Source of the DNA: Girardia tigrina
Taxonomy: Eukaryota
Direction of reading: 5' to 3'
Assembly (NCBI GenBank): GCA_001938485.1
Contig: MQRK01175358.1
Location: forward strand, 1 to 50,448
Length of the DNA: 50,448 nucleotides
The notes beneath the pieces were generated by a model. The model was not told the DNA's origin and did no database searches. It saw only the letters and a program-made list of their open reading frames with translations. This document shows, piece after piece, positions 1,478 through 50,448 of the stretch; positions within the stretch are counted from its first letter, which is position 1, and every line of letters begins with the position of its first letter. A program made the translations under genes and the position numbers.

Positions 1478-2009
1478 TGTGAGGAATATGTTAAATTTGT
1501 TATGTTGAAATTTGTTTGTTGAATTTTGTATGTTGAGTTATGTAGTATTTGGAAATGTATTTCTCCGACCCAGGTGGAAAATTGATATTTTACATGTTCA
1601 CGATAAATCATATTAAAATATAATTTGCATTTTAAAGTACAACATAACATATTTAAAAACATTAAAAATATTAAATCGTTTCAAATTTTCATATTAAAAT
1701 TTAAATAAAGTAAATAGTTTTAACTAAGTTTTGAATTAAATAAATATTCTTTCTTTCCATAAAATAATTTTTAAATTAAATTAATATGTAAATAAAATTA
1801 TTACTAAAATTACAAAATTTGAACTTTAAAAATAAAATCTGAAAATAATGAAAAATTTGTTAGAATAGTTGTTTATTAAAAAACATTAACTAAAAGTTAT
1901 CAATTTAGAACGATGTCGAATGACGAGAGTTTTGCTGAGAGTTGTGCAAAAGACAATTCTAATTGTATTGAAAATAAAAGTTCGAAAACCCATGTTGGTG
2001 TTCTTAATA
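1478..2009 (+). repeat. 5' LTR (TGT...AATA)
   Basis: Direct repeat of 6244-6775. Confidence 0.92.
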
Positions 2010-2761: not shown

Positions 2762-3091
2762 TAGGTTTAGGGAGCGTGATTAATGGAAAAGGGATAATGG
2801 AAATAATCGATTTAACAACGGGCAAAATTACTCGAATCAACGGTATAGAGAACGGCCAACATACACGAATAGGAAATACCCAGTAGCAGAAGTGGACGAA
2901 CTAGATGATGAATTGTACATAAGAGAAGACTTTAGAAAAGGGGAATATTCTGAAGGAACGTATAGAAAAGATGGCAAAAGACTGGAATATCCTGTAGGTA
3001 ACAGAAAATTCAGGAATGATCAGGGAAACGAGGACGCACGATCACAGGGAGAAGTGATCAGTGTGCTACAATAGGAACTCAATGTAGGTGT

Positions 3092-6000: not shown

Positions 6001-6235
6001 GCGATGGAAAAAGATATGTCGAGAAGGAAATGAATAAAAGCACGATACAGACGAAACGAGTATTCCGAATTGGAGATAAAGTGCATATAAAGAAAGAAAA
6101 TGTAACGAAGGATGAGGATCGATACATGGATACAGTCACAATAAAGAACCGACGACATGAAAGAGGTTACGAGATATAATTAGATGATGGTAGCATATTG
6201 ATCAGAAATGTGGAATGGCTAAAACCATTTAAATA
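3092..6235 (+). pseudogene. pol: Gypsy pol (protease, RT, RNase H, integrase), several frameshifts and stops
   Basis: LLDTGA; RT YLDD; DTDAS and RTDHKA; integrase YMDFCGPF, HVDRGK, YHHNTNGVVER. Confidence 0.93.
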
Positions 6236-6243
6236 GACGGGGA

Positions 6244-6775
6244 TGTGAGGAATATGTTAAATTTGGTATGTTGAAATTGGTTTGTTGAATTTTGTATGTT
6301 GAGTTTAGTATTTGGAAATGTGTTTCTCCCATCCAGATGGAAAATTGATATTTTAGATGTTCACGATAGATAATTATTCGAGTATAATTTGCATTTTGAA
6401 GTACAGCATAAGATATGTAAAAACTTTAAAAATATTAGATCGTTTCAAATTTTCATATTAAAATTTAAATAAAGTAAATAGTTTTAACTAAGTTTTGAAT
6501 TAAATAAATGTTCTTTCTTTCCGTAAAATAATTTTTTTAAATAAAATTAATATGTAGATAAAATTATTACTAAAATTACAAAATTTGAACTTTAAAAATA
6601 AAATCTGAAAATAATGAAAAATTTGTTAGAATAGTTGCTTATTAAAAAACATTAACTAAAAGTTATCAATTTAGAACGATGTCGAATTACGAAAGTTTTG
6701 CTGAGAGTTGTCCAAAAGACAATTCTGATTGTATTGAAAATAAAAGTTCGAAAACCCATGTTGGTGTTCTTAATA
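6244..6775 (+). repeat. 3' LTR (TGT...AATA)
   Basis: Direct repeat of 1478-2009, followed by TSD AAAGT. Confidence 0.92.
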
Positions 6776-13921: not shown

Positions 13922-14377
13922 AATAATGTTATCGTCAATTTGAAGTGGAAGAAGAAATTTTAGTAAAAGAAGAGCCACATAAAATTCGAAAATATAGAAT
14001 AAAGTATGAAGGACTAACATTACATCAAGTAGTTTTGATATACCAAAATCGATTAAATCCTAGGAGAATTGAATCGCTAAAAAGATTTATTTTGTTTGCA
14101 AACTAAGATGCGGTAAAAGTAAGAATATCTGTTATTTTTGTAAATTATAAAAATCTCAATTAATAAATTTATACTATATTATAATTAAGTCTTCAACTAA
14201 TTTAGAAAATTATTAAAGAATGATATAAATCCTGGTTGATTATTTCCCTTACTATTATTTATTAGTAAGACAACCAATTTTCAACAATTAGTTTAGGAAT
14301 GAGAGCAGCCTTTTTGATCAAATTTAATATTGTTTTTGTATAAATCAATTCAATATAAGAATAAAAATATCTGATAC

Positions 14378-14529
14378 CTTGACCATTGGTAAATCTGGAT
14401 GTTTCAATTTAATATTATATTCTTTTAAAAAATATTGTTGAATAGACATTTTCTTCTCTTCAATTTTTTCTTCGATTGCATTTTTTTTTGAAAATCCAAA
14501 AATCGTGTATTTTCGATCGTACTGCTTTC
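14378..14529 (-). CDS. ago: Argonaute PAZ exon (RKYTIFG...SIQQYFLKEYNIKLKHPDLPMVK)
   Basis: gtttag acceptor, gtatca donor, phase 1/0, PAZ core YF..Y...L.YP.LP motif. Confidence 0.9.
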
Positions 14530-23500: not shown

Positions 23501-26500
23501 CAGAATATTACCGGGAATCGAAAAGCAGCGTGGATATTGAAAATATCAGAAGAATACATCAATCAATCACTCCAAATCCTTTTCTATATCCGATAATTAA
23601 TTGTTATTATTAAATATAATTTAGTTTTTATGGATATTTGTTCTTCTCCGAGTGGTGTACCCACATACGCTATTAATAATAATTATTATTGTGGATTATT
23701 TTTTTAAGAAAAAATTTGAAAAATTACAAATTATTTTTTTCATTATTTTATGTTAAATAATTTAAAATTTTTTATTTTAAAAATTTGGAAATCTTTTATT
23801 AGAATTATCAATATAAGATATTTAAACATCAACATAATTTTAAATTAAATGTAAATTAATAAATGGTTTTAGTTTTTTTAATTTGTTCTAATTATAATGA
23901 CTAAAATGATAGTAAATACAAAATATTGCATTTTTTTAAATATATTTTTGTGAAATACTAGAATTGTTATCGTATTTTGAGCATACACATAAAAGAGAAA
24001 GAAGAACACCTGACTGAGTTTTTTTCCAATAGTGGAATCATTTTAAAACTGATTCTGGAGGCAAAGCCAGAATAACTAATAGTCTTGAATGATAGCATTA
24101 TAGTTAGCAAGCTTTATTTCAATGTTACCATCCAACAATTTGGAAATTTTTACAAGGCTTAGAGAAAGATTTGCAAATGCTAAAAACAAGTTATTATAAC
24201 GGGATCTCTGGTAACCTTTACTTAAAATATATTGAAATTTAAAAAACCAATTCATTGAAACAGTTAACCGACATTCTTAAGGACAAAGACTAGATTACTT
24301 GCACACAATTGCATATTTGTCAAGTCGTTAGTTGTTATTTAATAAATTATTGTCGAATTTGAGTCAAATGACCGAATTCAAAGACTTAAATCAGTATTTT
24401 GGGATTCGGTCATTTGACACAAACCCCATGTATTAGATGTAGGTGATTAAGTGTCACTAAACCCAATAAACACAATTAGAAAATATTCTTCACACAGACG
24501 AAATAATAAGTGTGAAATACAAAATGATCTGTGCAGAAAAATATTTTCAAAAAATTAGTTTCAGTAAAATTCTTTATTAATATATTTTTAACTAAAGATA
24601 TTTGAAATAAAGAGCAAATTTGAAATTAAAGCAGAACACAATCATTAAAATAGTAAATTTACTTATTTCCTTTCAAAAATGCCATTACAATGTTTCTAAG
24701 AGTGTCTTTCTTTTTCATTTTTGGAGTAATATCTCTTTTCTTTTGGTCAGATCCAACTACTTCTGCTTTTGTCAGTTCAATATCATACATATATATTTTC
24801 ATCGGTTTTATTTTCATATCTAAACAATTTATTGTCAAAGCGATAGAATAACCTTTTCTTCCACCATCATCAGGCCTATCTGGTAAAAATTTCCTCATGA
24901 GAGTTTGAGATATATTAAAATCAACATTAAGGCTAAATATAAATAAATCAAGGAAACATAAAATGTAAAAAAATAATGGCAATTGATATTCATTATTAAA
25001 AAGTGAACGCCATTTTTCACAATTTATTTTCATAATTAATTTCGGCGGATTACCCGCCATCTTCAGACTAAATTAACACTGGCTTTTTGCAGCTTATATA
25101 TGAGAAAGGTGATTATGTAATCAATCATGTAATAAAGGCTCTATTTGAAAATGTTTGACAGAGAAGTTGAGTGTGAAGCTTGGATATTAATTTTTGGATC
25201 CATGGATCTTATAATGAGGCCTTAATTTAGTCTGAAGATGGCGGGTAATCCGCCGAAATTAATTACGAAAATAAATTGTGGAAAATGGCGTTCACTTTTT
25301 AATAAAGAAACATAAAATGATTAAAGTTTTAATAATATTGGAAATATCATGTATATATTATTAAACATTTAAAAAATAGTTAAATAAATTATAATATCTC
25401 GTAATTATACTTAAGTATAATGATTAAATTTCCAGTTATTAAATAAACACTGTTTTCGAAATTACGGAAAACATTCTAAGGGGAATAAAAAATTCTCAAA
25501 ATTTTAAAATTGTGTCCACTTAATTCAAAAATTATTCGGGTAGTGACATGTAAAAGTGACACATAAATAAATAAAACCTTCTTTGACACAAAAATAACTA
25601 TTATATAAATTTTTTCTTTAAGTGTTTCATTTTATTATTTATTTGCAGTCATTTTATTTGACGCAATTTTCAAAATTTATTTAAGTGCAGAACAGTTATT
25701 CTGTAAAGGCAATTTGAATCGTACACATTAATGAATGGAGAAAAAATTCCTCAAAGTGGACGACCACACGAAGGGGAAGAAAAAGAAGCAACAAATGAAA
25801 AATCATTACAAGTGGTAATAATGTTTAGACCAACATAACGCTACCTAGTGAAATTAAATTTCCATTCACATAAATTCAAAGGACATTAAGACAAACTCTC
25901 AAATTATTCCAATACAAAAATCAAGTCATGCAGAAACTATCTGAAGATAAAGCAGCTAGAGTGACTATGTGTAAAATGATACTTGAAACATTTGATTCCA
26001 ACACAGATTTTCTGGACGAAATTGTGTTCTCAGACAAAGCAGTTTTCATACTACATAGAATTGTAAATCGTCACAATTTTCGTACATGGGGAACCACCCA
26101 CTTAATGAAATTGTAAAGCGTCTACATTCGAGCCAAAAAAAGAACGTTTGAATAGGAATTTCGAGTAGTAATTTCGTTTCTTGGTTTCAAAGAAGTTTCA
26201 AAGAAGATTTTCTCAAAACATCTTCAAGCAGAATGGTGCTCCTGTCCGTTACACAAAGGATTTGTGGAATTTCTTAGAGATTAGTTTCTAAGTACAATGG
26301 GCATAAAGATTACCACATCTGTCATCTCGAGACTTTTTCTTCTGGAACTACTTGAAATATTTTGTTTATAACAATATTTTCAAGAAATCATATTTAAAAG
26401 TGCTTGAAAATATCAAGAATGGTTAGATATGATTTAATGTCTTTTAGAGGTAGATTAAAGACGTGTATTGCTGACAGTAGTGCTCATATTAAAAAAAATT

Positions 26501-29600: not shown

Positions 29601-32600
29601 AATGAACATACAACATTCAAACACAAAATATCAAACATTCAAAATATTCCTCACATGATGTGAGTCACATCTCCTTCGATTTAAATGGCTTTAGCCATTC
29701 AACATTTCTAATAAAAGATCTTCCATCTTCAAGCTGTAACTCGTAACTTCTTTCATGATTTCTTTTCACCACTGTTGCGGATCTATGCAACGGTCATCTT
29801 CTTTTGAGACATTTTCCATGTTAATCAATACTTGGTCTCCAACTTCAAAAATTCTTCTTATCTCTATTTCTTGTTCAATTATCGTGGAGATAATGAACAT
29901 TGTGGTTTCCTCCATGGAGCAACCATCAGCGCCTCTGCTGAACGGTGATAATGAGACGATCCAGTTGAGTACAGTAGACATCCGCATTGATTGTAGCATT
30001 TGGAGGTAATACATCTAACAAGAGCAGTCCTTTACTATTCCAAAAGACGGAGGCGAGATGCTTTCGGTTTTTCAGTCATCGTGCCGGTGTTGCAAGTGGG
30101 TTTTCATCCGATTTTCTCCATGATCTGTTGTTGAAAGCCCCTTTGTTGTCCCAGTACACCCATATCTCATCGCAGGTGTTGATTTGGGACAGAAAATCAT
30201 TCCGGTGATAACTATCCAATAGCTGTCGACAAATTCTTTTGCGATTATCCTTGTTCTGTTGCGTCAGAGAAGTGTGGCACCCAGCAATTTTTCAGATATC
30301 GGTATCTCATTGCATTCAAGTGCCTGCACCCCGTGGTTTTATCCTGATCAATTCCCTCTGCAATGTTCCTCGTTGTTGTACGCTTGTCTTCAGTCAGAAA
30401 CTCGATTATCTTCTCATCGATGTCAAGAGAGGGCCGCCCTTCGCGGACTTGATCGTCTGTGTTAAAGTTGTTTTCACGAAAATTGGAAATCCACCTTTCA
30501 CATGTTCTCTTTGAGACTGTTTTAACTACAAGAACCGTGTTAATTTCGTCAGTCATCTGTGAGGGTGTTAAATCCCTTTTCCAGCAATAGTAAATAAATT
30601 TACAAATATCAGAGCGATTAAAATGCATTAGGATGATGAAAATGTGCGAAATTTACTAAAATGATATTATTTTATTAAAACAAAAATTCATTTAGAACAG
30701 AAAATAAAAATTATTGGACATAAGTAGATCTCAAATGCTATTTTATCTAATTCACATTTTATTAGGGATTGCAAGTATATAAGAATTATTTATGTGATGC
30801 AAGGATATCTGCAGTTAACATAGATATATGTGTGCGACAAAACTTATGAGGCAACCCTAAACATTTTATATATTTAACATATACGAGAAATCAGCTGTAA
30901 CTACCTTACATAAAATTAGCAAAATATCATCATAACTGAGAGTTACAATGTCACCTTTGTGTATACAATAAACGAAATCATTCAAGTAATCCTAAGTTCT
31001 TCAAAAATGCACAGTACATTGTTTTTGTCTCTTATGAGTTGTGCCATCTGTGCGCACCAAACTCCATATATAGTCACCCATTATGGCTTCGTCCCAACGC
31101 TCTTGATATTGCTTCTCCATCACCGTAATTTCTTGGTGGAACTTCTCACCGTGCTCTTCGCTAAAATCTCCGAGATTTAGTCTAAAGAATTCCAGGTGAG
31201 AGTGCAGATAATGCAGCTTTGTTGGCATTTTACAACCCAAATCTTGGTAGTCGTTGAGTAATTCTTCAATCATTTCTTTATAATTATCCGCTCTGTTGTT
31301 TCAAAGAAAATTAGAAACTACATGCTTGAAAGCAGCCCAGGCTCTCTTTCATTTTACTCTCTAGACTTTCTGATTCGAACATCTGCCTCACTTGTGGTCC
31401 AATAAACATACGTGCTGAAACTTTAGCTTCTGATAACTTGGGAAACAATGACCTGATCTCTTTAAGAGTTTCACCACTAGGATCTAGGGCTGTTACAAAT
31501 TTTTTAATCAATCACAGTTTTATATGCAGTGGATGTAGAAGAATTTTGTCAGCAGAAACAAGAGCAACATTTTTCACGCTATTTGCACCTGGTTGCAAGT
31601 CACTTTGTTCAGGTCATTCTTTTCGGACATAATGATTTGCTCTGTCTTTGCTATCCCATAAACAAAGAAAACAAGAGAACTTTGGGAATCCACCTTGCAA
31701 TCCAAGAAGAAAACCAATCATCTTGAAATCTCTACAAACATCCCATTTGTAGCTATCATAGTTGACCTTCGCAGCAAAGTTCTAACATTACTATAGTCCT
31801 CCTTCAAGTAGACACTGTGACCGATTGGTACCGTAGGATTCTGATTGCCATTGTGGAGTAATACTACTTTTAAACTCCTAGTAGAGCTGTCAATAGTCGT
31901 CATTGATCTGGTTGATGTGTGACACCACTTGCTTCAAACAGTCCCATCACGTCTGAACAAAAGCAAAGTGTTTCCTCAACTCTAAAGTAATAAGCAAATG
32001 TAGTGTGTCTATTTCGGTACTTAGAAATTCTCACACTTGGATTCAATAAATTCCATTCCTTTAGTCTAGATAAAAGCAGTTCAGCCCCTGCTTTAGGAAA
32101 GTTTAAGTCTCTGACAAGATCATCAAGTTCTTGTTGATTTGGAAAGTGAGGCTCTTTAGACTGCCAAGCTTCTTGTTCTTCTTCATACTCATCGTCCTTA
32201 TCCGATAGTTTCCTGTAGGCTTCATTTTGTTCTGGTGATTCTGAAACAGGTAAATGATCATCATGTAGCACTGGTGCAATATAAGAAGGTATATCAGGAT
32301 AGACTAGTTTCTTCTTATCCTGTGGTTTAGTATAAGCAGTGATATCCATCATACAGAAGTAGCAAACGTTGATGTGATTTGTCAGTTCCCTCAAAATTCT
32401 AGAGACTGCAAACGGCATTCGTTATCTGCTGCCTCTTAGCCACCTTTCCAATGCTGATTTGCAGCATCCGCATATAATATGAGGAGCCTAGGATTTATCT
32501 TGATCTCTTATGTGCATTCCAAAATATTTCTCATTTGCTTCACAGTACATCGTCTTCCTAGATATCTTATATTTGATTTGAGAGGGACCAAAATAATATC

Positions 32601-35600: not shown

Positions 35601-38600
35601 TATATGAACATTTTCAAGTTTATTCCATTTTGTTCAAATATGAAACAGATTTACGATCGTAATTAGGTAAATGTACTTTAGATTAATTTCATTATTTATT
35701 TTATTTTTTATCACTAAAAACTAATAAAAAAAGAAATTTGATATTTTTCAAAATGAGATGTAGTAATGACGAAATAATGAGTCTCAAATACGAAATGACG
35801 TGACAAACCCTGTAATATCGAGTTACCATTATTTTACTCAATCAATATTTATAAATTCTAAAGGATATATTTTAATTGAATAAACATAAAAAGTAGATGG
35901 TATTTTCAGACAGTTGATATTGAAAATAATAAAAGTTAAAAACAAGAGAGTTTTTAATATGATAATAATAACTTACTCCTTCAGCTCCACGAGGTGGTTC
36001 ATCTTTTTTCCATGCACTTTGCTGTTGAATTCTTTCTTGTGGTTGTGTAGTTGGAAAAGGTTGCTTTTGTTGTTGCTGTTGTTGATATTGTTGTCGATAT
36101 TGTTGTTGTTGCTGTTGGTGTGGTTGTTGTTGGTATTGTTGTTGATGATGTTGTTGTGGTTGTTGTTGTTGATGTGGTTGTTGATATTGTTGCTGTTGCT
36201 GATGCTGTGGTTGTTGTTGTTGATGTGGTTGTTGATATTGTTGTTGTTGCTGTTGGTGTGGTTGTTGTTGGTATTGTTGTTGATGATGTTGTTGTGGTTG
36301 TTGTTGATATTGTTTCTGATGTTGTTGCTGTCGATATTGTTGATACTGTTGTACTGGTTGTTGTTGTTGCTGTTGGTATTGCTGTTGTTGTTGTTGATGA
36401 TATCTCTGTTGATGTTGTTGATGTGGCATTTGTTGCTGCTGATGTTGTTGTTGATATCTTTGCTGAGGATTTCCTTGTCTTGAACCTTGATCCTGAAAGA
36501 AATACATTAAATAGATTGAATATATTATATTTACTTACCCCATAACTTTTCATAAATGTTTCGTAATCGGCTCCAGAAGTTTCTTGAGCTCCTTGTTGAG
36601 ATTGTTGAGGTCTATGTTGTCCAGCCGATTGATCAGTTTGTTCTTCTCTAACATTTTGTGTTTCTTGGTGTCCACTTTCTTGTCCAGTAAACTGACTATA
36701 ATATAGTATATACTCTTTTAATTTACTAACTATACTAAACATTAACTGATCAGTTTCATAAAGATTATAAATTCTTAAAAATAATAGCAACAATAAACAA
36801 AAATACATATAAAGAAGTTAAGTTTTAAAATGATTGTAAAAATAAATAAAATTTTGATACACTCGACAGCCGTCCAACAATCAAAATTAATTACTATCTC
36901 CACAATTTTTGACTGAAATAATAATAGACTTTCTTCCTTCACAAACTCTAATATTGTTGTGACGAATATTTGGTGTGTTGATGTTTTTGTGTAGTGTTTG
37001 CATGTTTAAATGTTGTGTGTTGATTTGGGATTGTGCCTCTCCTAATCAGATGGATGATCAATATTTTAATTCTTATAATCTGAAACTAATTTATTTAAAT
37101 TTAGATTTAATATTCAAATTTTTAATTTTGATTATTGTAAATTTTAAATAATTTTATTGATTTTATTTTTGTAAATTTTTAAATAATTAAAATCAAATTA
37201 ATGTTTAAAAATAATTATAAAAATAATTTTATTTTAGCCAAAAAAAATTGAATTAAATATTTTAAATAAAATAATTTTCTTCAAGTTAGTTCAGACATTG
37301 AGTGATGAATTTAAGTGAGAGCAATATTATTGATTGTCATAAAGATGATCAAAATTGTGAATGCAATAAATGTGCTGTCAAATTTGTGAGTTCTCTAAAT
37401 ATCCTTGAGACATTATTGTGGTATTTATTTCTTTATTTTGTGATTTATTGATTTTTAAAAGATTATTCAATTTTTGTACTTATAGTTTTTGTTCGTTAGA
37501 ATGGCAAGCTCACTGGAAAAAAAGAAAGCGAGTAGAACTTACTCCAATTCTAAAACACGCAGTGTACCAGTACAAACAAAAAAACAATCTCTTGTCACTG
37601 CAAAAATTTTGTCATTTCTAAAAGAAATATAATAATTTGAATTTTTTATCCATCATGATTGATTGATTATCCACCAAAATGATTGACAATATCCTTATCT
37701 CAATACGTTTCAACTTCCAAACAAGATAAATGAATCGAATTTCAGCAGATAGATGATACCTTGCTATTATGGTTAACTGAAATATCGGAGAATGTTACCA
37801 CAATTAGCAATGTTACTGTCGTAGAGAAAGCTTAAGAACTTGATGAACGGTTATAAATAAACTTCTTATATTAAAGTCATGAGCGGCTACAAAAATTCAA
37901 GCAACTTAATAGAATAAAGTTATACAAAAAGCATATGTACCACTAGAATCAACAGATACCACATTGAACTTTCTATTGCCGCAGTTATCTAAATTTGCCT
38001 TAGTGATATCTATAATCTTAAGGAAAGTGGTTCATTTTTTTCCTTTGAACCCTACACAACGCTTGCAATAAATCACATATCAGAACAAAAAAAGTAAAAT
38101 CTCGTTTGACATTGTCATTTTATGTAAATGCTTCTGGTAATGATAAGCAGAAATCTTTAGTAATTTTGAAGAATGCAAAACTCAGATACTTTGGATCGTC
38201 ATTTGACCCCAAAACGTGGATCGATTGGTTTTACAATCCATCCGGCTCCAATATCCACCAATTACACAACAATTTGTTGAAGAAAATAACTGGGACATAG
38301 AAAAAATCTCTTTCTAACGGGAATGTAAGGAATCCAGATATACATAACAAACTCGTTATGAGAATTCCCATATTGATTCAATTTTTTATTAAATTAATAA
38401 TTTTGATCATCCTTGAGACAAGCCCTTGTAGAGTTTTCAATCATCGACATCATTGAAACAGAATAAATAATTTTAATCCAATCATCGGAACACTTGAATA
38501 ATCTTCACTAATAATTTCATTGGCTATGTTGAGTTAAATATTAATTATTCTCATAAATATGTAAAAAGATTTATTCATTTAAAAATAAAATAAATCAAAT

Positions 38601-41600
38601 TATTTAACATTTTACAATGATTTTAAATTCAAAATTAGTAAATCAGAACCATTTACTAAATTATTAATTCTTATCGTTTATGTGAATAAGTCATTCAAAA
38701 ATCGATTAAAAATCGCAATTTTCAGAAATTTAATCGATTAGGAGTCAATATTTCGGGTCTAAAATTCGAACTAGTGACCCTATCAAGCATGTTTGACTGA
38801 ATAAGTAACTGGACAAAGAGGAGCATTTTAATGTGTTCCAGTACTGGAGATAAATATTTTTAAATAACAATATAATATTTTATGAGGAGTTAATTTAAAT
38901 TTGCATTTCACCAAAATAGTTTATTATTTTTTAATTTGTAATTTTTAAAAAAAAGTAAATAAATACAACTTTTAAAATTAAAATGATATAATAAAGAAAA
39001 CCATCCAAAATTAAATACATATTTAAAAATTAAAAATATATTTAAATAAAAATATATTTACAGTCATAACAATTGATATATTTTAATAAAAATTATGAAA
39101 TAATTTTAAATAAATTTTAAAATAGATAATAAACGAATTAAACTTTATAATATTTTAAGAAATAATTTTTTAAATAAAAGTCTTATAGTAAATTCAAATT
39201 AATTAGTTTTAGGATAAAATTTTATAAAAATTTTTAGTTTAAATTTAAAAATTATTTTATTAATTTGAAGTTTTAGGATTTAAAATTTATTAAATTTTAC
39301 AAAATGAATTTGAAGTAAAATTTAATAGATTAATTTTTTGGCGAAATAATTGAATTAACAAGAAATTTGTTTAATTGTCTGAATTATTGTCATTAATAAA
39401 ATTTTGGTGATGAATTATGAGCATTGAATTTGTTAATAATTTTAATCGGTTATTAAAGCCCACTTATATTGGAAAATACAAATTTTTACGCTATTTTTAC
39501 AAACTTTACGTTAATTTTTCAAAATTTCAACTAATTTTACAAATTTTAAGTTAATTTTACAATTTTTACGCACATTTTTTTACAATTTTTACGCTGAATG
39601 GAATATACAATAAAAAAACTATAAAGAAACATTTATTGATAATAAAATTATAATATTTTTATTCATTTTTCATTTCTTGTTTTCTTTTTGTATCAAAATA
39701 TTTCAAATTCGTCGTAAGACGAATGATTTGAGGTCTTCCTTTTTTTTCGGTTATCGGTTCAATATCTTTTTCAAATACAATACGTATCAGGCATGCTGAC
39801 ACTGTTTAAGCTTCACAAAAGTACAACAAATTCACTATACATCGTATACGGACGCTAATTCCAAGTAAGTAAACACAAAAAGTAGCCGAAATACAGATTT
39901 TTAAGTTCATTTATATTTTTAGCATCAAAGAGTCTTTGATATTTTCAAAAAAATGATTTTTAACCGCTTGAGAGTCATACATTAATGTCCATCTTCAAAA
40001 TTATATTGTATTACAACTGAACCGGATAGATTAACAATCTTCCTCATTTTCTTGGTACATCCAGCATTTCGGCAACAAAAAGTATATATCGTCGTCATCT
40101 TGTTATATTTTTTATCTCTCTGAATTCATATTCGACTTCCATCATTATAACTAACTCTTTCCTATGATTTCCATTGGTTTACCGTTCGTTTCTTAATTTC
40201 TTTCGTATTATTATTGTTATCCATTTATAGATAAATTTTAATCAATTTTTAATATTGGAAATAAATTTCAAAAACTAATTAATAAAAATAAAAAATCACC
40301 AATTTAAAATATTGGGTTGGCCAAAAAGTCATTGCGTTTTTGAGTACGTCCTAATAAAAAGCTTGAAAATATAAAACGATGTGATAAAATTTAAATTCAA
40401 TTATATATTCTGAAACCTTAATTTTCAGTCTATGTTTATACAAAATATTAATTGATTTTGTTTTAATTTATTACTTTACCGTCAATTNNNNNNNNNNNNN
40501 NAAAATGAGCATATTCGTCATGTTTTGTTGCATTATTTTCGCAAAGGGAAAACCGCTGTGCAAGCTCATAAGAAGATATGTTTTGTATATGGTAGTGACT
40601 CCTTAAAACTTCGACAGTGTCAATACTGATTTTCTACATTTCGTTCTGAAAAATTTCATCTGAAAGATGCACCACACTCCGGTCGACCATTTGAAGTTGA
40701 TGGCGACAAAATAACAGCACTGATCAAATCTAATCCACATATGACGACAAGAGAAGTTGCAGAGACTGGAAATATCAAAATCAAGTGTTGGAAGTCATTT
40801 AAAGAAACTNNNNNNNNNNNNNNNNNNNNNNNNNNNNNNNNNNNNNNNNNNNNNNNNNNGATCAAATCTAATCCACATATGACGACAAGAGAAGTTGCAG
40901 AGACTGGAAATATCAAAATCAAGTGTTGGAAGTCATTTAAAGAAACTTGGATTCGTCAGTAAACTCGATATGTGGTTAACACATGAACTGAAAGAAATTC
41001 ATTTGGTGAAACGTATAGACTTTTGCGATTCCCTTTTGAAGCGAGAACAAAGGGATCCATTTTTGAAGCGCTTTATTACGGGGGACGAAAAATGGATTGT
41101 TTATAACAATGTGGAACGTCGACGATGATGGACAAAACGTGGTGAGCCTGCCAAAACGATCCCAAAAGCAGAAATTCACCAAAAGAAGGTTATGCTTTCC
41201 GTCTGGTGGGATTTTAAAGGAATTGTGTTTTTTGAACTCCTTCCGAGGAATGAAACCATCAATTCAGACAGATATTGTGGTCAGCTGGAGAAATTGGCTC
41301 ATTTAATTCAACAGGAACGTCCTGAATTAGCAAATCGAAAAGGAGTTGTAAGTCAGCATGATAACGCAAGACCGCATACAAGTTTGACCACTCGCCAGAA
41401 ACTCTTATCACTGGTTGGGAGGTTTTGCCGCACCCACCGTATTCTCCAGACTTGGCCCCATCGGATTTTCACTTATTTAGATCACTGCAGAAAAACATTC
41501 GCCAGTGATGATGACATCAAATCGTTCCTAGACGGCTTTTTTGCTGACAAAGGCAAAGGTTTTTATTCTGAGGGTGACCGTGCTTACAATAACAATATGT

Positions 41601-44600
41601 TAAAATCTAAAAACCAAATTAATCAAACAAAAGTACGTCTTTGATTAATTTAGTTTTTTGATATAAAAATATATTTAAAACAACGTGTAAACGATAAACT
41701 TTAATTTTAATTCGAGAAATAATCACAGTCAAAATAATATACGTCAACGTTTGAAAAAAAATAATGTCACTTTATGCCGAATCACAGCCGAATATGTGTT
41801 AGTACGAACTTCAATATTTGAGGATTTTTTGAATCACTTCTTTATTTTCTTTCTCGTCTTCAATCGTAATAATTTAAAGTGTCGAAAGGTGAAATGAGAA
41901 GAATGTTTACAGCTAAAAGGCTGATGTCAAAAATAAATCACGGCGGCTTTATAATAAGCAATTGTTAACTGTTATTAATTATTAATTTTTTGGATTGAAT
42001 GCTTTTTGAATTTTTAATTCAATTTGCTATTATCATAGTAATTCCATGGCGATATAATTATAATTTTATATAACTGTATTTCTTGTTTTTCTCCATTTTT
42101 TTTACAAATCTCATCTGTAAATGTTTAAACATTATCACATAACAAAGAGGTATTAAAAAAAAATGAAAGCGAAGGAATTCTGCACAAATAAAACAAAGGG
42201 TAGAAATAAAGTTAAAGAGAAATCGAATCATATTAACTTTCTTTGTCACTCACGAAATAAGTAGGGCACTACATTTATGAATCAGGAATAATGAAGCTAC
42301 CGGAAAGGTGGAAGAAAGTGATTGAAAATAATGGACAGTATATCGTGTAAAAATATTTGTGCATCCATGTCATTTTTTGATAATAAATATTTTAGTAAAA
42401 AACGCAATGACTTTTTGGCCAACCCAATAGTAATCTATAAATTTTTATTATTTAAAAAAATTGGAAAGAAAGTTTAATTATATTTAGCGTAAGAAATTGT
42501 AAAAAATAGCGTAAAAACTGCAAAAGTTAACTTTAAAAAATTAGAAAGTGAACGCCATTTTTCACAATTTATTTTCGTAATTAATTTCGGCGGATTACCT
42601 AGTGCCATCTTCAGACTAAATTAACACTGGCTTTTTGCAGCTTATATATGAGAAAGGTGATTATGTAATCAATTATGTAATAAAGGCTCTATTTGAAAAT
42701 GTTTAACAGAGAAGTTGAGTGTNNNNNNNNNNNNNNNNNNNNNNNNNNNNNNNNNNNNNNNNNNNNNNNNNNNNNNNNNNNNNNNNNNNNNNNNNNNNNN
42801 NNNNNNNNNNNNNNNNNNNNNNNNNNNNNNNNNNNNNNNNNNNNNNNNNNNNNNNNNNNNNNNNNNNNNNNNNNNNNNNNNNNNNNNNNNNNNNNNNNNN
42901 NNNNNNNNNNNNNNNNNNNNNNNNNNNNNNNNNNNNNNNNNNNNNNNNNNNNNNNNNNNNNNNNNNNNNNNNNNNNNNNNNNNNNNNNNNNNNNNNNNNN
43001 NNNNNNNNNNNNNNNNNNNNNNNNNNNNNNNNNNNNNNNNNNNNNNNNNNNNNNNNNNNNNNNNNNNNNNNNNNNNNNNNNNNNNNNNNNNNNNNNNNNN
43101 NNNNNNNNNNNNNNNNNNNNNNNNNNNNNNNNNNNNNNNNNNNNNNNNNNNNNNNNNNNNNNNNNNNNNNNNNNNNNNNNNNNNNNNNNNNNNNNNNNNN
43201 NNNNNNNNNNNNNNNNNNNNNNNNNNNNNNNNNNNNNNNNNNNNNNNNNNNNNNNNNNNNNNNNNNNNNNNNNNNNNNNNNNNNNNNNNNNNNNNNNNNN
43301 NNNNNNNNNNNNNNNNNNNNNNNNNNNNNNNNNNNNNNNNNNNNNNNNNNNNNNNNNNNNNNNNNNNNNNNNNNNNNNNNNNNNNNNNNNNNNNNNNNNN
43401 NNNNNNNNNNNNNNNNNNNNNNNNNNNNNNNNNNNNNNNNNNNNNNNNNNNNNNNNNNNNNNNNNNNNNNNNNNNNNNNNNNNNNNNNNNNNNNNNNNNN
43501 NNNNNNNNNNNNNNNNNNNNNNNNNNNNNNNTCAGTAATAAATCTCCCACTCCTCTCGGTTTGTGCTCCGATCTTGTTTATAAATATACATGTAATGGGT
43601 GTAACGCCACATACATTGGAGAGACCTCTCGTCATCTCTGCAAACGGATCAAAGAGCATAGTCGGTTGGATAATGGGAGCAATATTGCCGAACATAATTT
43701 AAAATGTAAAAAGAAAATCGGAGAAAATGATTTTAGAATTCTGTGTAATCGATTTAAAAATTACTGGGAGAGAGTAAAGTGTGAGGCCTCATTAATAAGA
43801 TCCATGGATCCAAAAATTAATATCCAAGCTTCACACTCAACTTCTCTGTTAAACATTTTCAAATAGATCCTTTATTACATGAGTGATTGCATAATCACCT
43901 TTCTCATATATAAGCTGCAAAAAGCAAGTGTTAATTTAGTCTGAAGATGGCGGGTAATCCGCCGAAATTAATTACGAAAATAAATTGTGAAAAATGGCGT
44001 TCACTTTTTAATAATGAATATCAATTGCCATTATTTTTTACATTCCTTAAAAAATTAGCGTTAAAATTTTTAAATTAGAGTAAAAATTACTGCATTGAAG
44101 ATGCAGTAATGGCAAAACGCTTACGTTTTTTGATTAAATTTGAAAATACAAAGTGACCTTTATTTCCATTATATATATATATATATATATAAGCGCACTC
44201 AATAGTTAAATTTAGCAGTATTCAATCATTGCTTAAAATTTCAAAATTTTTAAATATTTATGATTAATAATCAATTGTTGGATATCTTAAATTCACTGAA
44301 ATTTTTACTAGAAATCGTATTAAATATATTAGGAAATGTCGATTTTTTGATTTGATTTAAAGGATTTATCATTACTATTTAAGATATTTTAAATAACCAA
44401 ATTTCTGTCGTTATTATTTTTTATTTATTTTACATAAAATTTTAAAAAAAAGGATAATTTGTAATCATTAAAATGGATCAATATGAACGATCATCCAGCC
44501 ATTGCTTTAAATATCACTAAAATCCATATTAAATGAGAAATAAAATTCAATTCAAGAATAATGAAATAATATTGGAAATCAAATTATTTTCTCACTCACC

Positions 44601-44683
44601 GTTGTTGATTTGATCCTCTAGAAACATAATAAGAATTATTTATTAATTAATCAATTAAAAAAATACTTCTTCTTTTTTGGCAT
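14378..44683 (-). CDS. ago: Argonaute-family gene, multi-exon, 5' part (Gln-rich N-terminus, N, L1, PAZ); 3' exons not found in window
   Basis: Manual splicing at GT..AG sites: 44667-44683, 44600-44617, 36539-36695, 35977-36492, 28725-29012, (27457-27470?), 24663-24932, 18303-18522, 18069-18260, 16274-16418, 14378-14529. Phases match at every junction except exon 5 to 6, which needs the candidate micro-exon. Motifs RPDDGGRKGYSIALTINC..IYMYDI, PVFDG, EALRALD..IRPHMWKVRFNFD and SIQQYF..YNIKLKHPDLPMVK match Argonaute N/L1/PAZ consensus. Confidence 0.9.
14700..15522 (+). mobile_element. hAT transposon 3' remnant
   Basis: Dimerisation motif FPSVKTII..VTTCTIDRSFNTLRRVKTCLRA; terminus ...GCGGACGCCCATG. 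Confidence 0.75.
16274..16418 (-). CDS. ago: Argonaute PAZ exon (TQVVCHEAINLWEY...LKTLRVQASHLKNAE)
   Basis: tttag acceptor, gtattg donor, phase 0/1, LKxLxVxxxH PAZ motif. Confidence 0.85.
16640..17030 (+). mobile_element. MULE transposase C-terminal remnant
   Basis: KTNSIESYD...NFGMFLEVIKK resembles RTNNxxEGWH...PNIWxFxxxLK. Confidence 0.5.
18069..18260 (-). CDS. ago: Argonaute linker-1 exon (EALRALDT...IRPHMWKVRFNFDK)
   Basis: Matches the Ago L1 pattern xALQALD...GF..SVRP..WK..LNID; 42-nt upstream intron. Confidence 0.9.
18303..18522 (-). CDS. ago: Argonaute N-domain exon (GLPVFDGGRIIFN...DDMPH)
   Basis: tttttcag acceptor, gtaata donor, PVFDG motif. Confidence 0.9.
19945..21123 (+). mobile_element. 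5'-truncated mariner element nested in the second Gypsy
   Basis: LLQDNAPIH...HPPYSPDL, RWKKCVVHEGSYVEK*, TIR-like end followed by TA. Confidence 0.85.
20198..20853. mobile_element. Small non-autonomous insert (Helentron/HINE-like) inside the mariner
   Basis: Splits YLF|SKMK; sub-terminal inverted repeat accacgtttt/aaaacgtggt, tctg/tttg microsatellite, T-rich ends; middle is an N gap. Confidence 0.45.
24663..24932 (-). CDS. ago: Argonaute N-domain exon
   Basis: tttag|C CTT..., LPDRPDDGGRKGYSIALTINCLDMKIKPMKIYMYDIEL; ends AA|gtaaat, phase 2/2. Confidence 0.9.
25020..25075 (-). ncRNA. Minimal hammerhead ribozyme motif, sense to the Argonaute pre-mRNA
   Basis: CUGAAGA - stem II GGCGG/CCGCC - GAAA - palindromic AUUAAU - UH. 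Confidence 0.7.
25224..25278 (+). ncRNA. Minimal hammerhead ribozyme motif (inverted pLTR copy)
   Basis: aatttagtCTGAAGAtggcgggtaatccgccGAAAttaattacgaaaataaatt. Confidence 0.7.
25690..26603 (+). mobile_element. Degenerate Tc1/mariner-superfamily transposon
   Basis: FLDEIVFSDKAVFILHRIVNRHNFRTWG matches the IxFSDEAxFxLxGxVNRHNxRxW motif. Confidence 0.7.
26607..26735. repeat. (TA)n microsatellite spanning an N gap
   Basis: Visible in sequence. Confidence 0.95.
28725..29012 (-). CDS. ago: Argonaute exon 5 (GSIQRQGRPQE...TPVSSE)
   Basis: 288-nt GC-richer open frame absent from the ORF track; cttaag acceptor, gtaata donor, phase 0/0. Confidence 0.75.
29231..29890 (-). mobile_element. Gypsy 3' end (integrase tail, PPT, LTR), sister family of the 1478-6775 element
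   Basis: RIFEVGDQVLI..EDDR and RNVEWLKPFK homologous to 6060-6235; LTR 29231-29655 ends GTTCTTAATA. Confidence 0.8.
29900..30860 (-). mobile_element. Mariner element, 5' half
   Basis: HTH-containing ORF 30245-30628 (EGRP, WVPH); 5' TIR ttagggttgcctcataagttttgtcg. Confidence 0.85.
30880..32872 (-). mobile_element. CMC/Chapaev3-type DNA transposon, decayed
   Basis: CYFC, ELDDLVRDL, IDSSTRSLKVVLLHNGN, HYLHSHL and EEHGEKFHQ motifs; terminus CACAGGGCAAC flanked by TTA. Confidence 0.8.
34100..35812. mobile_element. Non-autonomous TIR element (TA-flanked) containing a Helitron
   Basis: TIR cagggtttgtca / tgacaaaccctg with TA on both sides. Confidence 0.65.
34738..35560 (-). mobile_element. Helitron deletion derivative
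   Basis: 3' CTAG preceded by hairpin ttcgccag-ac-ctggcgaa; Pif1 helicase fragment NLDHDCGLCNGTRLIV; 5' ..TACTATAAAA and cagacaga repeats. Confidence 0.75.
35977..36492 (-). CDS. ago: Argonaute exon 4, Gln/His/Tyr/Pro-rich repeat (172 aa)
   Basis: tctttcag|GAT ... GGA|gtaagt, 516 nt, phase 0/0. Confidence 0.8.
36539..36695 (-). CDS. ago: Argonaute exon 3 (QFTGQESGHQET...FMKSYG)
   Basis: tatag acceptor, gtaagt donor, open frame, Gln-rich composition. Confidence 0.8.
36958..37414 (+). repeat. Solo LTR
   Basis: Starts TGTGACGAATAT, flanked by ATTGT direct repeat, homologous to 11045-11432. Confidence 0.75.
37500..38330 (+). mobile_element. pogo/Tigger-like transposase remnant
   Basis: KKRKRVELT..K HTH start; DIYNLKESG; LTLSFYVNASGNDKQKSLVI. 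Confidence 0.7.
40312..42427 (+). mobile_element. Full-length mariner (D,D34D) with frameshifts and an internal insertion
   Basis: TIRs TTGGGTTGGCCAAAAAGTCATTGCGTTTTT, TA TSDs, ITGDEKW, HDNARPH, HPPYSPDLAPSD; ~700-bp insert (about 41567-42278) splits GFY|ESGIMKL. Confidence 0.93.
42545..44046 (+). mobile_element. Penelope-like retroelement, 5'-truncated with inverted pLTR
   Basis: GIY-YIG LVYKYTCNGCNATYIGETSRHLCKRIKEH (ORF ends 43866); inverted pLTR 42545-42722; 12-bp TSD TTAAAAAATTAG. Confidence 0.9.
43933..43987 (+). ncRNA. Minimal hammerhead ribozyme motif in the Penelope pLTR
   Basis: CTGAAGA..ggcgg/ccgcc..GAAA-TTAA-TT. Confidence 0.7.
44600..44617 (-). CDS. ago: Argonaute coding exon 2 (18-nt micro-exon, GSNQQR)
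   Basis: tttctag|A GGA TCA AAT CAA CAA CG|gtgagt; phase 2/2 fits both neighbouring exons. Confidence 0.7.
44667..44683 (-). CDS. ago: Argonaute coding exon 1 (start, MPKKK)
   Basis: ATG CCA AAA AAG AAG AA|gtattt; phase 2, 49-nt intron to next micro-exon. Confidence 0.65.
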
Positions 44684-46551
44684 AATTAAGATTTAATGAA
44701 TTGCAGAATCACAAATTCTAGGAAATAAAATGACCTTCAAAAAAACTACTCGATTATTAAAACGAATAGTAATATTTACTGTTTTATTTATTCATATGAT
44801 CTATTCTTTTAAAGTTAGTTTTATTTTAATTTTTTAAACTTAAATAATTTTTTCCAATTAAAATCAGACAGAAATTTTAATTATGTTTTCTTAAACTTTT
44901 AAAAATGAAAGTTATCCTTACTTTGATCAAAGATTTTGTTGATCTTAGATTTCTAGAAATTTTCAGGAATAAATTGTGTTATTTTTTTAGTATCAGCAAA
45001 CTGCAAACATTAAGTATTAATTAAAAAATTTATTAATGAACGAAAAATATCAATTATATTAAATGTGAGAAGTCTGGTATAATGGGTCGTATGTGTAAGG
45101 TATATTGTCCCTCACAAAATTAATTGCCCCAGTGGCCATAGATATTGACCGTTGATAGCAGAGTCATCATGTTTGTGTTGCTGAAGTTTGCGTTTCGCCC
45201 ATTGATTAATGTATTCAAAATTGGATTTGTTCGGTTCATTTTCTTATTTTGTATTTATCTAAGAAGACTTTTCGAATACAAAAAAAAATTATTCAATTCG
45301 TAATAACAATTCTCAAAATCAAAAGCAAAATAATCGTTTTGAAAAATTTCGTAAACTAAATTTAATTTGCGAAATTAATCGATTCAATTGAAACATTCAA
45401 AATTCGTCGTAATTAAAAATTGAAATCATACATTGTGATTGATTTGAACAATTAGAGCAATTGAAAGCGATTCAACAATTAATAACTCAGCAACAAAAAC
45501 TTCTTTGTTCGCTTTTCAAACTGGTACAGTGGTAATAAAATAAATAACAATAATAACTTTTTATTTAATTTAAATTATTATTTTTTTCCATATTTAATTA
45601 TTAAATTGTTAAATCTTTTACTATCTATTATATATATGTTAAGTATATAATATAAAAATATTTTTTAATATTTTATTTTAATTAAATGAGTTAAATAGAT
45701 TATTTACTCCTATATTTAATTATATATAAGTTATATATAAACAAGTAAATAAAAATAAAAGTATAAAAGAGAAAAGAATTGAAAGAAGATGGTCCATTAG
45801 TTTATTAAAAGCATGAAATAAAAAGACAAATTATATCGAAAGAAGAGATTCATTAATTAAAGTTAAAAGTACAAAATTATAATTAATTTGAAAAAGCGTA
45901 GGATCAAATTCCTCTACGTGGAATAGAGCAGCTGGTTGACACATAATTTAATATTACGTGATCAACAGCTGACAGAATTAAGGTATAAATTGGGAAATTT
46001 AACGAGAAAACGAATAAAAAAAACTAGAGAATTTAAAAGTTGTTGACATTATTGATCCACTACATTATTGCCTAACACGAAAAGAAAAGGAGAATAGCCG
46101 AGACATATATTCTCCTAAACGGAATAAATCATATAACCGTATTTATATATAAATTTTATATTTTTTTATATCACTAAAATATTTGGAGGCAATTACGAAG
46201 TACTTCCTCAAATATTTAAATTATAAAATCAAAAATTAAGGTTTAGGTTACTGTCGTGTTCCCTTCTCTCGACAACATTTTTGTGGACTCAGAGCCCACA
46301 TCCGTTTTTCGAGTTCAACGGCAACTCTTACACTCTTTGAACTCCTCTCGGTGATTGCTCTCTATTTTCTTATTGCTTACGGGAACAGACGCGCCTCCTC
46401 CACGCATATCAACAAGTTGTGAGTGCTTCAGAGCGCCTTCGGGTTCTAACCAGTAACGGGCATTACCCGACTGGTAGTCTCAGTGCCTGAGGGGTCGATG
46501 TTTTTATCCTTTATTAACATTATTCTAAGCTTCGGGCTTCCATTACATATC

Positions 46552-46650
46552 GTGAACGAGAAGAGCCTCAAGGAAATCAGCGACGATCAAACCACGTGCC
46601 CCTTGCATGCTGCGGTCTACTCTCGCCACCTCCAAAAGGGTTCTCGTCAC
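46552..46650 (-). other. Structured-RNA-like repeat, copy A
   Basis: Long hairpin with G-U pairs on the minus strand; diverged paralog at 47175-47276. Confidence 0.5.
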
Positions 46651-47174
46651 TGTTAATGTTTTCATTAATTAACAAAATTTTTCTTTTATTCAACTTCAAC
46701 GTTACATTGAACTTCCAACTCGACTCGGAGTCATAATCGACGAATTTTAACTTTGAATTTATATTGGTACTATATTGTGACTCTGATTATTACTAGATGA
46801 CATTCCATGTCTCTTGACTTCAGTTTCAAATTTAAATCACTTTATCTCTTTTAATTTGATTTTGATTTATGAATGTTGCTATTTGTACTTTTCGAATTTA
46901 AATTCCTGTTATTTTATATTTCCATTATTAATTATTTATTAATAGTTTGTTTTTAGTTGAATAAGTTATTTTTACGTTCACAATATCTGGTTTCTCCGAT
47001 CCCGTATTCATATTACTTTATCTCTATCAACGGGCCTTTCCTATTTATTTTACTTTATAACTTTTGGTTAGAATTCACGTTATCGTATAACTCTTGATTC
47101 TACATAACTTTGAATTTCAAAATTTTTCGTTATCGTTTGGGCATTTTGAGTTGAGGCGTTAATTTTAATTATAT

Positions 47175-47276
47175 CGGACGAAGAGAGCCCTAAGGAAGTA
47201 AACATCGGTCGACCCGCGTGCCCCTCGCATTCTGCGGTCGGCCAGCGTCACCTCCAAAAGGTTTTTCGCCGTTCCG
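47175..47276 (-). other. Structured-RNA-like repeat, copy B
   Basis: Shares cttttggaggt and ccgcag(a/c)atgc(g/a)aggggcacg cores with copy A; stems differ but still pair. Confidence 0.5.
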
Positions 47277-49654
47277 GATACTTTCTTCCATTATCATTTA
47301 TTAATAAGATTTTTTGTTCTCGAATTTATTTGGAACCAATTTAAATCAAGAAATCTCTAACTCTGACATACTCCGAAAATTGCTTCATGCGAAGGTACAT
47401 TTTTATTACTTAGAATATTAAATTCATCAAGAGAAAACTTTAGATAAATTATTCAACTCATTTAAAAAATTGGAAGTGGTTTTCAAACTTAAAATAAATC
47501 CAATTAGACTTCAACATTAAAATTAAACTTAGTCTAAGATAATGAGAATTCATAAGTGAAATAGTACATGAAAGCGAAATGGTTTATTTTGCATAACCTC
47601 GAATCATGTTCGATTTATTTTTGTTTAACAGAGTTTGTATTTCTTGTTTCTTTTCATTTAACATAAAGTTCATAGACTGAGTCATGCTTAAGGCACGCAG
47701 ACAAAATGTGCATTCAAATATTTCTATCTAAATTGGTTCTATAATTAAAGGTTAGATACCCCTGTAAGTCACAAGATGAAAATATCTAATTCATGATTCG
47801 ATGTCTTCATCTAAAGAAATTTCACTCCATATAAATGTCTTTATTTAGACGGATAGGGAATTCACCCTTTGACAGTTATTGATATCAATTTTGTTTCTGA
47901 TTAAATTAAAACTTTTACTTGTCTTTCTGAATCCTAAAAATTTTAATCCTTTAAAATAGATTGGAAGAAAACATCATTTTGCCAACTCTAAAGCTGAAAT
48001 TATGGGAGAACTATCTCAAGACATGCCAATTCATCTCGTTCTGATATTTACATCGCCATCGTCTATTATGGTAGCCTCACTCTCTCATCCAACCACCGAA
48101 TCCAAGTCCACTGTCAAATAACTATATCAAATATTATTTATAGACTTTCGTACTCCTTCCTTATAATTAAATTTTATTTACAACTCTACATTTATCCATT
48201 ATTGAACTACTACCCTTCATTTCCATTTACAAAACCACGATCGAATCGAGGACGTAAACAAATAGATTAATAACTTCTTGATTTACACACCGTTGACCCT
48301 TTGTAACTCATCAGCTTGAAGGACTCCGTCGTCAACTTTATACTGGTTACTATAGCATATTTGTGAACCATCAAAGTTAAAGCGATTAATAGTGAATTAG
48401 ATTAACTGAAATAATTAAAGTGACATCACAGCACAAATCCAAAACTGGATCTATTATTATATCTGCGCATATCGATATTATATTCTAATTTGATTATTAT
48501 ATTATATTTACTGTGCTATATTTATTATCATCATTCATCGTCATTATGCAAATCATTCGGATCCTATATATGCAATATTTACAAATAATGTCTTTCTCAT
48601 ACCTTGGTCCTCCTCATAACTAAAAATAATAAAATTTTACATGGATAAATAGTGTTTTTGTTATTTTTTTCTTTCATTACCAGTAGAAGTTAATAAAATT
48701 CAGAATAGTTAAATAAAATAAATTAATAATAGAAAATTAATTAGATAATTTCAAAGAATAAAGTTTAATTATTTGCAGATTTGTTATCAACAAATTGAAG
48801 AAAATTTATTAAACCATCAAATAAAAGATATTTTATTTCCATAACTTGAATAAGTCGATACAAGAACGAATTATATCCCAGAAAAATTCCAACTTTTACG
48901 GGAAATATCTTAGATAGAAGAAAATTTATTTTTGAATATTTTCGTCATTTTATCATTACTCACTAATGATAATTGTAAAATAATGAATTATAATAGTCTA
49001 TGAATTAAGATCTTTTTTAACATGTTTGTTTAACGAATTTGATATATTTTCATTGCCATCGTAGTTCGTTGAATATAAACCTTTCGCATTTTTAATTAGA
49101 TTTGAAAAGTCAATAATATTTGAATATTGTCTTTCTAATCCGTTTTTCTGATTATGCAATTCTTCAAGAATATTAGCATAGTTGTTGTTATCAATATTAA
49201 TAGAACAATTCCAAAAATAAATTAATATAATTATAAAAAAATTTAAACCATTGAAGTATTTTTTATGTTCCGTCAAACAATATTTGAAAGGAATCCAAAG
49301 TTTCTTTGGTTCGCGGTGTCGATCGTTTTGTTACAATATCCAACACTCTCATGAACCATCATATTATTACAATTATTTGAATATATTTTAATCAATGAGA
49401 TATGAATAAATATAAAAAAAATTTTATAATATAATTGGATATTAGATAAAATAGTTATAAAAATCTTACATTCTTACTGATTAGAATAATAATTAACTAA
49501 TAATAAAATATATTAGATCAACAAAATGTGTATTAGCTCATACATTAATAACTTTAATATAATAAAACGAAACAAAACGATAAAATAAGCAAGGAATTAA
49601 ATAATAATAAAATATATTAGATCAACCAAATATATTAACTCACACAAAAAAATT

Positions 49655-50325
49655 ATATAATAATTATTTTTGTGTCAAAGAAGGTTTTATTTATTTATGT
49701 GTCACTTTTACATGTCACTACCCGAATAATTTTTGAATTAAGTGGACACAATTTTAAAATAAGGCCTCATTAATAAGATCCATGGATCCAAAAATTAATA
49801 TTCAAGCTTCACACTCAACTTCTCTGTTAAACATTTTCAAATAGAGCCTTTATTACATGATTGATTGCACAATCACCTTTCTCATATATAAGCTGCAAAA
49901 AGCCAGTGTTAATTTAGTCTGAAGATGGCGGGTAATCCGCCGAAATTAATTACGAAAATAAATTTTGAAAAATGGCGTTCACTTTTTAATAATGAATATC
50001 AATTGCCATTATTTTTTTACATTCCTTAGTATTTTATGTTTCCTTGATTTATTTATATTTAGCCTTAATGTTGATTTTAATATATCTCAGACTCTCATGA
50101 GGAAATTTTTACCAGATAGACCTGATGATGGTGGAAGAAAAGGTTATTCTATCGCTTTGACAATAAATTGTTTAGATGTGAAAATAAAATCGATGAAAAT
50201 ATTTATGTATGATATTGAACTAACAAAAGCAGAAGTAGTCGGATCTGACCAAAAGAAAAGAGATGTTACTCCAAAAATGAAAAAGAAAGACACTCTCAGA
50301 AACATTGTAATGGCATTTTTGAAAT
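49655..50325 (+). pseudogene. Inverted duplicate of the Argonaute N-domain exon with upstream intron and Penelope pLTR
   Basis: Reverse complement of 25501-25606 joined to 24672-25223; exon copy (about 50063-50325) lacks the donor and runs into a stop. Confidence 0.88.
49911..49965 (+). ncRNA. Minimal hammerhead ribozyme motif in the duplicated pLTR
   Basis: Same core as 43933-43987. Confidence 0.65.
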
Positions 50326-50448
50326 TTGAAATAACTTTAATATAATAAAACGAAACAAAACGATAAAAACTATACTTCTTGATTACGGTGCAAACTTCAG
50401 CGAAATTGTGGATAAGCGAATTCTAAATTGGTGTTTAGTTTCAAAGAT

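Follow-up and report, generated by a model that had tools for sequence, protein, structure and literature searches.

The contig MQRK01175358.1 of Girardia tigrina, analysed here over a stretch of 50,448 nucleotides (the window), carries on its minus strand two diverged sequences of about 100 nt upstream of an Ago-like gene. The original prediction, made from the letters alone, held that they fold as hairpins with covarying stems and represent a candidate undescribed structured RNA. Are these hairpins real RNA structures, and if so, to what do they belong? Both were found where they had been seen, copy A at positions 46552–46650 and copy B at 47175–47276 of the minus strand. For copy A, folding gives one extended hairpin (−42.7 kcal/mol; z −3.02 on the minus strand and −1.33 on the plus strand) in which the stems listed for it are recovered. 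Its apical motif (46592–46615, minus strand) consists of a 4-bp stem, an asymmetric internal loop, a 3-bp stem and a G-rich loop. Copy B, with its apical motif at 47214–47237 (minus strand), has the same overall fold, weaker by itself, but contains a mismatch inside two of the stems listed for it; its z-scores (−1.85 minus, −2.11 plus) show no strand preference. An Rfam scan, one of the checks proposed with the prediction, was run and matched no family: the covariance models gave nothing at gathering score on the window, nothing at E≤1 on four loci, and one unrelated match only (E 4.7) on positions 43500–50448. Ribozyme, snoRNA and known microRNA were discarded as candidates for lack of an Rfam match, and the suggestion of a self-cleaving ribozyme was further weakened in that no catalytic core was recognised.

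Genome searches with copies A and B yielded 1277 and 1239 candidates, of which the best 40 were scored in each case. A 17-nt apical loop pattern occurs 1041 times in the genome, with no occurrence of the reversed control, and the apical 24-mer gave no hit in either metagenome or viral contigs. In relatives of the window repeat, similarity stops sharply at a common boundary, 46252, past which the flanks are unrelated (48 rows, the same place being counted twice in some cases); inward from it they extend about 4 kb. Three complete related LTR units measure 4108, 5135 and 4820 bp; they begin with TG, end in CA and are flanked by 4-bp target duplications (TCAT/TCAT in L064, CATA/CATA in L072, three of four positions matching in L112). 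A fourth candidate for a complete LTR, spanning 8.7 kb, turned out not to be a single unit, and a flank common to L086 and L088, considered as internal element sequence, is actually another small repeat. A primer site for tRNA-Pro follows 19 LTR ends (as an exact 18-mer in 8 of the 19) and is complementary to the 3′ end of the host tRNA-Pro (16 pattern matches; 7 tRNA-Pro genes in 4 loci). Together, the TG...CA ends, the 4-bp duplications and the tRNA-Pro primer site identify the repeat as an LTR whose sense strand is the minus strand of the window. The window copy (46252–50448, minus strand) is the LTR of a Burro-type Ty3/gypsy element, with its 3′ end at 46252 and its 5′ end about 0.7 kb past the contig end. 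It could be matched within complete LTRs up to 49663 and again at 50330–50448; the gap corresponds to a younger nested repeat with a Penelope-like end (approximate limits 49640–50325; repeats D2, D4, I1, I3 and I5). Since no primer site is present behind its 3′ end, the window copy is either a solo or a 3′ LTR. The two hairpins are part of the 3′ end of a 4–5 kb LTR, and not an RNA of the Ago locus.

As to the neighbouring gene, a PAZ exon at 14348–14545 (minus strand, E 1.1e-8) confirms the predicted Ago-like gene on that strand; a Piwi match was not obtained on this contig. The gene as delimited (14348–44683, minus strand) also includes a long N-terminal exon rich in Gln, at 35875–36534. About 1.6 kb separate the LTR end from the presumed ATG, near 44683; the LTR has the orientation of the gene and might conceivably feed transcripts into it. 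The window copy is a passenger insertion at this distance from the presumed start, from a subfamily with the module twice. The relation to the Ago-like gene that had been drawn from the shared strand is not supported: the minus strand is merely the LTR sense strand, and more than 1,000 copies lie elsewhere. Conservation of the hairpin is accounted for by the element, not by the Ago-like gene.

We then asked how the structure is maintained among copies. A hairpin profile gave 144 distinct copies in 269 loci, which were picked by likeness and are not a random sample; 139 copies are full-length and N-free, and fall into 35 clusters. Among the medoids of the 15 clusters with at least two members, identity over the hairpin module is 0.71, as compared to 0.55 in the upstream flank, 0.59 in the downstream flank and 0.51 after shuffling. 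Structure was tested on 29 real copies, six singleton medoids being excluded as degraded or truncated. The 35-pair structure used is an RNAalifold result extended by hand, and was derived from the same sequences as those tested; in these 29 copies, 86.7% of 1012 cells are paired with it, against 41–50% in slid controls. Two-sided changes are found at 20 pairs (shuffles 14.5 ± 2.2, 5/500), and covariation amounts to 0.358 (shuffles 0.287 ± 0.010, 0/500), all of these controls ignoring kinship. Comparison of inherited with private states was made for 27 pairs in the seven clusters with at least five members, a shared state being one present in half a cluster. Shared pair states are paired in 179 of 189 cases and private states in 32 of 104; on the LTR-sense strand, the G-U:A-C ratio is 32:5 among the former (p 7e-6) and 20:27 among the latter. 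This contrast points to selection on the LTR-sense strand during replication of the lineages, dead copies decaying regardless of pairing. In 14 disjoint copy pairs, 13 of 19 two-sided changes stay paired (0–3 of 10–16 when slid). Predicted pairs make up 3 of the top 20 column pairs by APC-MI (expected 0.17, p 5.5e-4), which means that only a few pairs reach significance on their own. Pairing is irregular in the middle helix, where column pair 32–67 is unpaired in 15 of the 29 copies, and the basal stem of four rows, which is one column off in the alignment, was excluded from the shared/private and disjoint-pair tests.

The 18 apical columns (41–58) behave differently from the stems. They differ by 0.118 between subfamily medoids, and the stems by 0.311, at equal within-cluster rates (0.056 and 0.067), indicating that the sequence matters in the loop whereas only pairing matters in the stem. 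The apical part contains near-invariant unpaired purines and a G-rich loop. The hairpin is a conserved RNA structure, with pairing kept on the sense strand across subfamilies and a loop kept in sequence. With more homologues, the claim of stems that change yet remain paired was borne out, and that of a conserved apical part held genome-wide. The minus-strand reading stands for the family through the G-U bias, but not for copy B taken alone, and the cttttggaggt bulge, also thought conserved, is kept in close subfamilies only, its two unpaired columns differing by 0.67 and 0.59.

The internal sequence behind the primer site is common to the copies and leads into a Gag-like frame in L167. Relatives that are 76–91% identical in this frame encode a CCHC knuckle, a ubiquitin-like stretch and a Monjiviricetes-type fusion protein, then PR, RT, RNase H and IN. 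The order of gag followed by PR-RT-RH-IN was seen on contig C212320 (L215, L304), tied to the LTR via the common internal sequence. An env-like fusion protein (PF24664) lies between gag and PR in L200 and L201, of the clade that carries the hairpin, and in L203, of a sister clade; in L200, hairpin, gag and env are found on one contig and on the same strand. The sister family uses the same primer site, and its Gag is 45–52% identical to that of the hairpin clade. Its 4142-aa open frame covers capsid, CCHC, ubiquitin-like, env and PR regions and is followed by dUTPase-like, RNase H and IN matches, and one copy measures more than 20 kb from the primer site to the end of the last ORF. The ubiquitin-like and dUTPase-like Pfam matches are below cut-off (E 3e-4 to 3e-3); the dUTPase match was obtained in the sister frame only, and the hairpin clade has a 64–67% identical stretch. 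Burro, or GYPSM1, elements are giant gypsy-like LTR retrotransposons of planarians (PMC6431247). As far as the part of that source used here describes them, they share with our element a Gag with CCHC, an env-like fusion protein between gag and PR, a very long polyprotein and upstream accessory ORFs, and have a ubiquitin-like region and, between PR and RT, a dUTPase-like stretch, of which our element shows putative counterparts (PMC6431247). On account of this match, made by layout and not by DNA, we assign the element to the Burro type; the layout by itself points to a planarian host. By contrast, the MATH, BIR, BCL2-like and ankyrin domains of Burro (PMC6431247) gave no match in the fragmented element frames scanned here, and the same part of the source presents Burro without an LTR RNA structure, a primer tRNA or an acceptor-led array of small ORFs.

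Within the LTR, the hairpin (module 1) is the first of three conserved blocks separated by variable AT-rich linkers, and usually starts about 370–390 nt before the LTR end; copy A occupies this usual place, at about 400 nt, and copy B is a second module 1. The LTR-terminal block lies at most 130 nt downstream in 125 of the 144 copies, 11 precede a second copy and one has the block further on; two lack sequence to judge and five have no LTR-terminal block. The original prediction stands as to a structured, compensatorily changing RNA on the minus strand, but not as to a stand-alone RNA gene, since 136 of 144 copies directly precede the LTR-terminal block or a second copy. Module 2 (46381–46500, minus strand) comprises two predicted hairpins, and pairing is possible between its last 10 nt and the end of the LTR (46252–46263). 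It is kept in both clades, between which these 10 nt and the LTR end differ together. Module 3, the LTR-terminal block (46252–46327, minus strand), includes an inner primer-site-like copy at 46288–46302, with one change in the window copy. Such a second start of the tRNA-Pro primer site, 9–11 nt long and about 45 nt before the LTR end, is found in both clades (L202, L274–L303), and is possibly part of a bipartite site or a decoy.

LTRs with two copies of module 1 show three cluster combinations, one being the window subfamily, which carries the hairpin twice. In another subfamily, a B-type hairpin occurs alone and in terminal position, and the A-type terminal part is found in yet another; that the window type unites a B-type upstream part with an A-type terminal part, each terminal elsewhere, suggests recombination or duplication. 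A single strong TATA match was found in each of the three complete LTRs, at positions 657, 597 and 878. From its position, the hairpin would be transcribed 2.5–4 kb downstream, in R or U5. Neither a conserved TATA near the hairpin nor ORFs conserved inside the LTR across subfamilies were found. An AATAAA is located 30–40 nt upstream of the hairpin in several subfamilies; it is absent there in others, which ruled it out as a general feature. Read depth (run X1, of presumed kind) rises over copy B and over the final 400 nt, but was set aside as evidence of expression because the same parts are the most conserved among subfamilies. Two further observations concern the LTR. One subfamily contains, mid-LTR, a captured and broken fragment of the NatA auxiliary subunit NAA15 (L072:2070–3757, minus strand; PF12569, E 2.8e-25), a stretch also present in L073 and L080. 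A 10-bp inverted repeat lies about 110 nt into the LTR (L064:4655–4685 and 34 LTR starts); among its mismatches, G-U is favoured when the antisense strand is read (20:9), and an antisense acceptor-like motif adjoins it.

Several ORFs of 110–150 aa lie between the primer site and gag, and a YAG directly precedes the ATG of the first in 13 of 18 rows (some being duplicates). This acceptor-like placing suggests spliced subgenomic RNAs, and with them a need to route unspliced RNA. The sister element at L202:2250–8530 (plus strand) has nine ORFs of 108–153 aa from primer site to gag, three of them paralogous and most with AG just before the ATG. Modules 2 and 3 are present in the sister clade, and the hairpin profile matches only 1 of 31 sister-pattern loci (16 of which have at least 450 nt of LTR), this one having a hairpin-clade-type end. 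Of 15 hairpin-clade loci, 11 have the first and 10 the second of the two initial, basic, small ORFs; neither occurs in any of the 31 sister-pattern loci, 26 of which begin with the third small ORF; the co-occurrence of hairpin and small ORFs amounts to one clade contrast only. Neither of the two ORFs has a homologue in the sister array of L202 (7.8 kb) or matches a Pfam family above cut-off, and an Atlas search with the first gave no usable match. Their R+K content of 20–23%, as compared to 16–22% in sister small ORFs, is not unusually high.

We tentatively rank first the possibility that the hairpin is a Rev/Rex-style docking site for a small accessory protein of the element itself, marking unspliced RNA. 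This reading is preferred because acceptor-like short ORFs precede gag and because the sister clade has neither the hairpin nor these two ORFs, which makes one contrast only. Transcription from the TATA 0.6–0.9 kb into the LTR would place the hairpin in the 5′ leader, and the short ORFs behind the primer site would be reached by alternative splicing. The long stem may act as a scaffold displaying the apical internal loop and the G-rich loop to the protein, whose binding would mark unspliced genomic RNA to be exported and then packaged. A conserved splice donor was not found after the hairpin or after the TATA; the specificity of the hairpin for unspliced RNA is therefore putative, and we count this against the docking site. 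The likeness to HTLV-1 RxRE/Rex and HIV RRE/Rev, as given in the parts of PMC2657110 and PMC9142903 used here, lies in a structured cis RNA, an env gene and several small, spliced-looking accessory ORFs. However, RxRE and RRE are multi-stem elements of unlike sequence, as opposed to a single 100-nt hairpin, and the partner and export activity are putative in our case (PMC2657110, PMC9142903). It is a rather doubtful further step that a flatworm Metaviridae provirus independently evolved an RNA-protein switch in the style of complex retroviruses, in which a clade-specific LTR hairpin, read by a clade-specific small protein, would govern as many as nine accessory genes, arranged as a multiply spliced array in front of the giant Gag-Env-Pol polyprotein.

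The main rival, second in our ranking though somewhat unlikely, is a packaging or dimerisation signal for the Gag zinc knuckles, which would open a structured leader adjoining the primer site as its first domain. The fixed distance to the LTR end and primer site would suit it, as would the unpaired purines and G-rich loop in an element whose Gag has a CCHC knuckle; in the parts of the sources used here, unpaired Gs serve as Gag sites in HIV (PMC9142903), and Ty1 and Ty3 have cis sequences at their RNA ends (PMC4974528). Structured RNA by the primer site, unpaired Gs and a CCHC Gag are indeed common to retroviral Psi, the Ty1/Ty3 5′ leaders and our element, but here the hairpin is located entirely inside the LTR, before the primer site is reached, and the sister clade lacks it (PMC9142903, PMC4974528). 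That clade, with a Gag 45–52% identical, keeps modules 2 and 3 yet shows no module 1, which argues against packaging, as do a loop that is not self-complementary and the occurrence of the hairpin, if within R, at both RNA ends. Ranked third, and unlikely, is a site for a host protein, either a CTE-like element for export via NXF1 or an element of translation or stability. A long stem with a sequence-conserved internal loop and the tolerance of two copies agree with it, and the CTE provides a precedent (PMC2657110, in the part used here). However, Rfam gave no match, and the hairpin is limited to one clade although all clades share the host.

Other functions appear improbable. If an unrecognised promoter lay just upstream, the hairpin could be a TAR-like structure at the 5′ end of the transcript; conservation does start abruptly at its 5′ edge, and like HIV TAR it is an LTR hairpin with a bulge and a G-rich loop, which together with the short stem we take to be a resemblance. 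A TAR-like sequence has reportedly been found in Drosophila Osvaldo LTRs. Nevertheless, the upstream flank is near shuffle-level identity without a fixed motif, and TAR sits at the start site whereas this hairpin is about 3 kb downstream of the predicted promoter, the single strong TATA at 597–878 in 3/3 complete LTRs being 2.5–4 kb away. We give as little credit to a structural role in helping reverse transcription or strand transfer, or in choosing the poly(A) site. Such a role would fit a position in R/U5 beside modules able to pair with the LTR end, and the AATAAA upstream in several subfamilies, but that AATAAA is wanting in others, the G-U bias fits sense RNA and not minus-strand DNA, and loop conservation would go unexplained. 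Finally, a microRNA or siRNA precursor, a regulatory RNA of the Ago locus and a short peptide are largely refuted and very improbable. The pre-miRNA size, the Ago-like gene on the same strand and the indel-free frame shared by A and B had spoken for them. A microRNA is contradicted by arms that diverge and a loop that is kept, and an Ago-locus RNA by more than 1,000 unlinked copies. The peptide, proposed with the original prediction as an alternative, was rejected together with a duplicated exon: divergence per codon position is 0.25/0.31/0.22, without third-position bias or codon periodicity, 57 of 139 copies have a 1-nt indel in the loop, and stops interrupt 21 of 35 medoids.

The literature searched describes neither this hairpin nor any RNA structure in Burro LTRs. 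The hairpin is a real cis-acting RNA of a known element class, undescribed within that literature. According to the part of PMC8532177 used here, which concerns Burro expression, these elements shape the genomes of planarians and are targeted there by PIWI; their cis signals are not described in the literature searched. An RNA of defined extent (100 nt) that offers natural covariation, a loop kept in sequence and candidate partners can be tested in vitro, and makes it possible to ask by what means an element of 30 kb, rich in small ORFs, regulates its unspliced RNA. Outside Retroviridae, a pair of Rev/Rex type would come as a surprise, if confirmed. Screens for structured RNA in planarians will miscall these LTR copies as ncRNA genes.

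Other repeats share the window. Penelope-like repeat ends at 43784–44039, 49762–50017 and 24962–25309 contain, as judged by eye and without an Rfam match, a core resembling a minimal hammerhead, and a frame near 43535–43866 is presumably GIY-YIG-like. Positions 1464–6775 (plus strand) hold a Ty3/gypsy element of ordinary type, with gag-pol matches and both LTRs, and two mariner-type remnants are located at 40310–42429 and 29900–30652.
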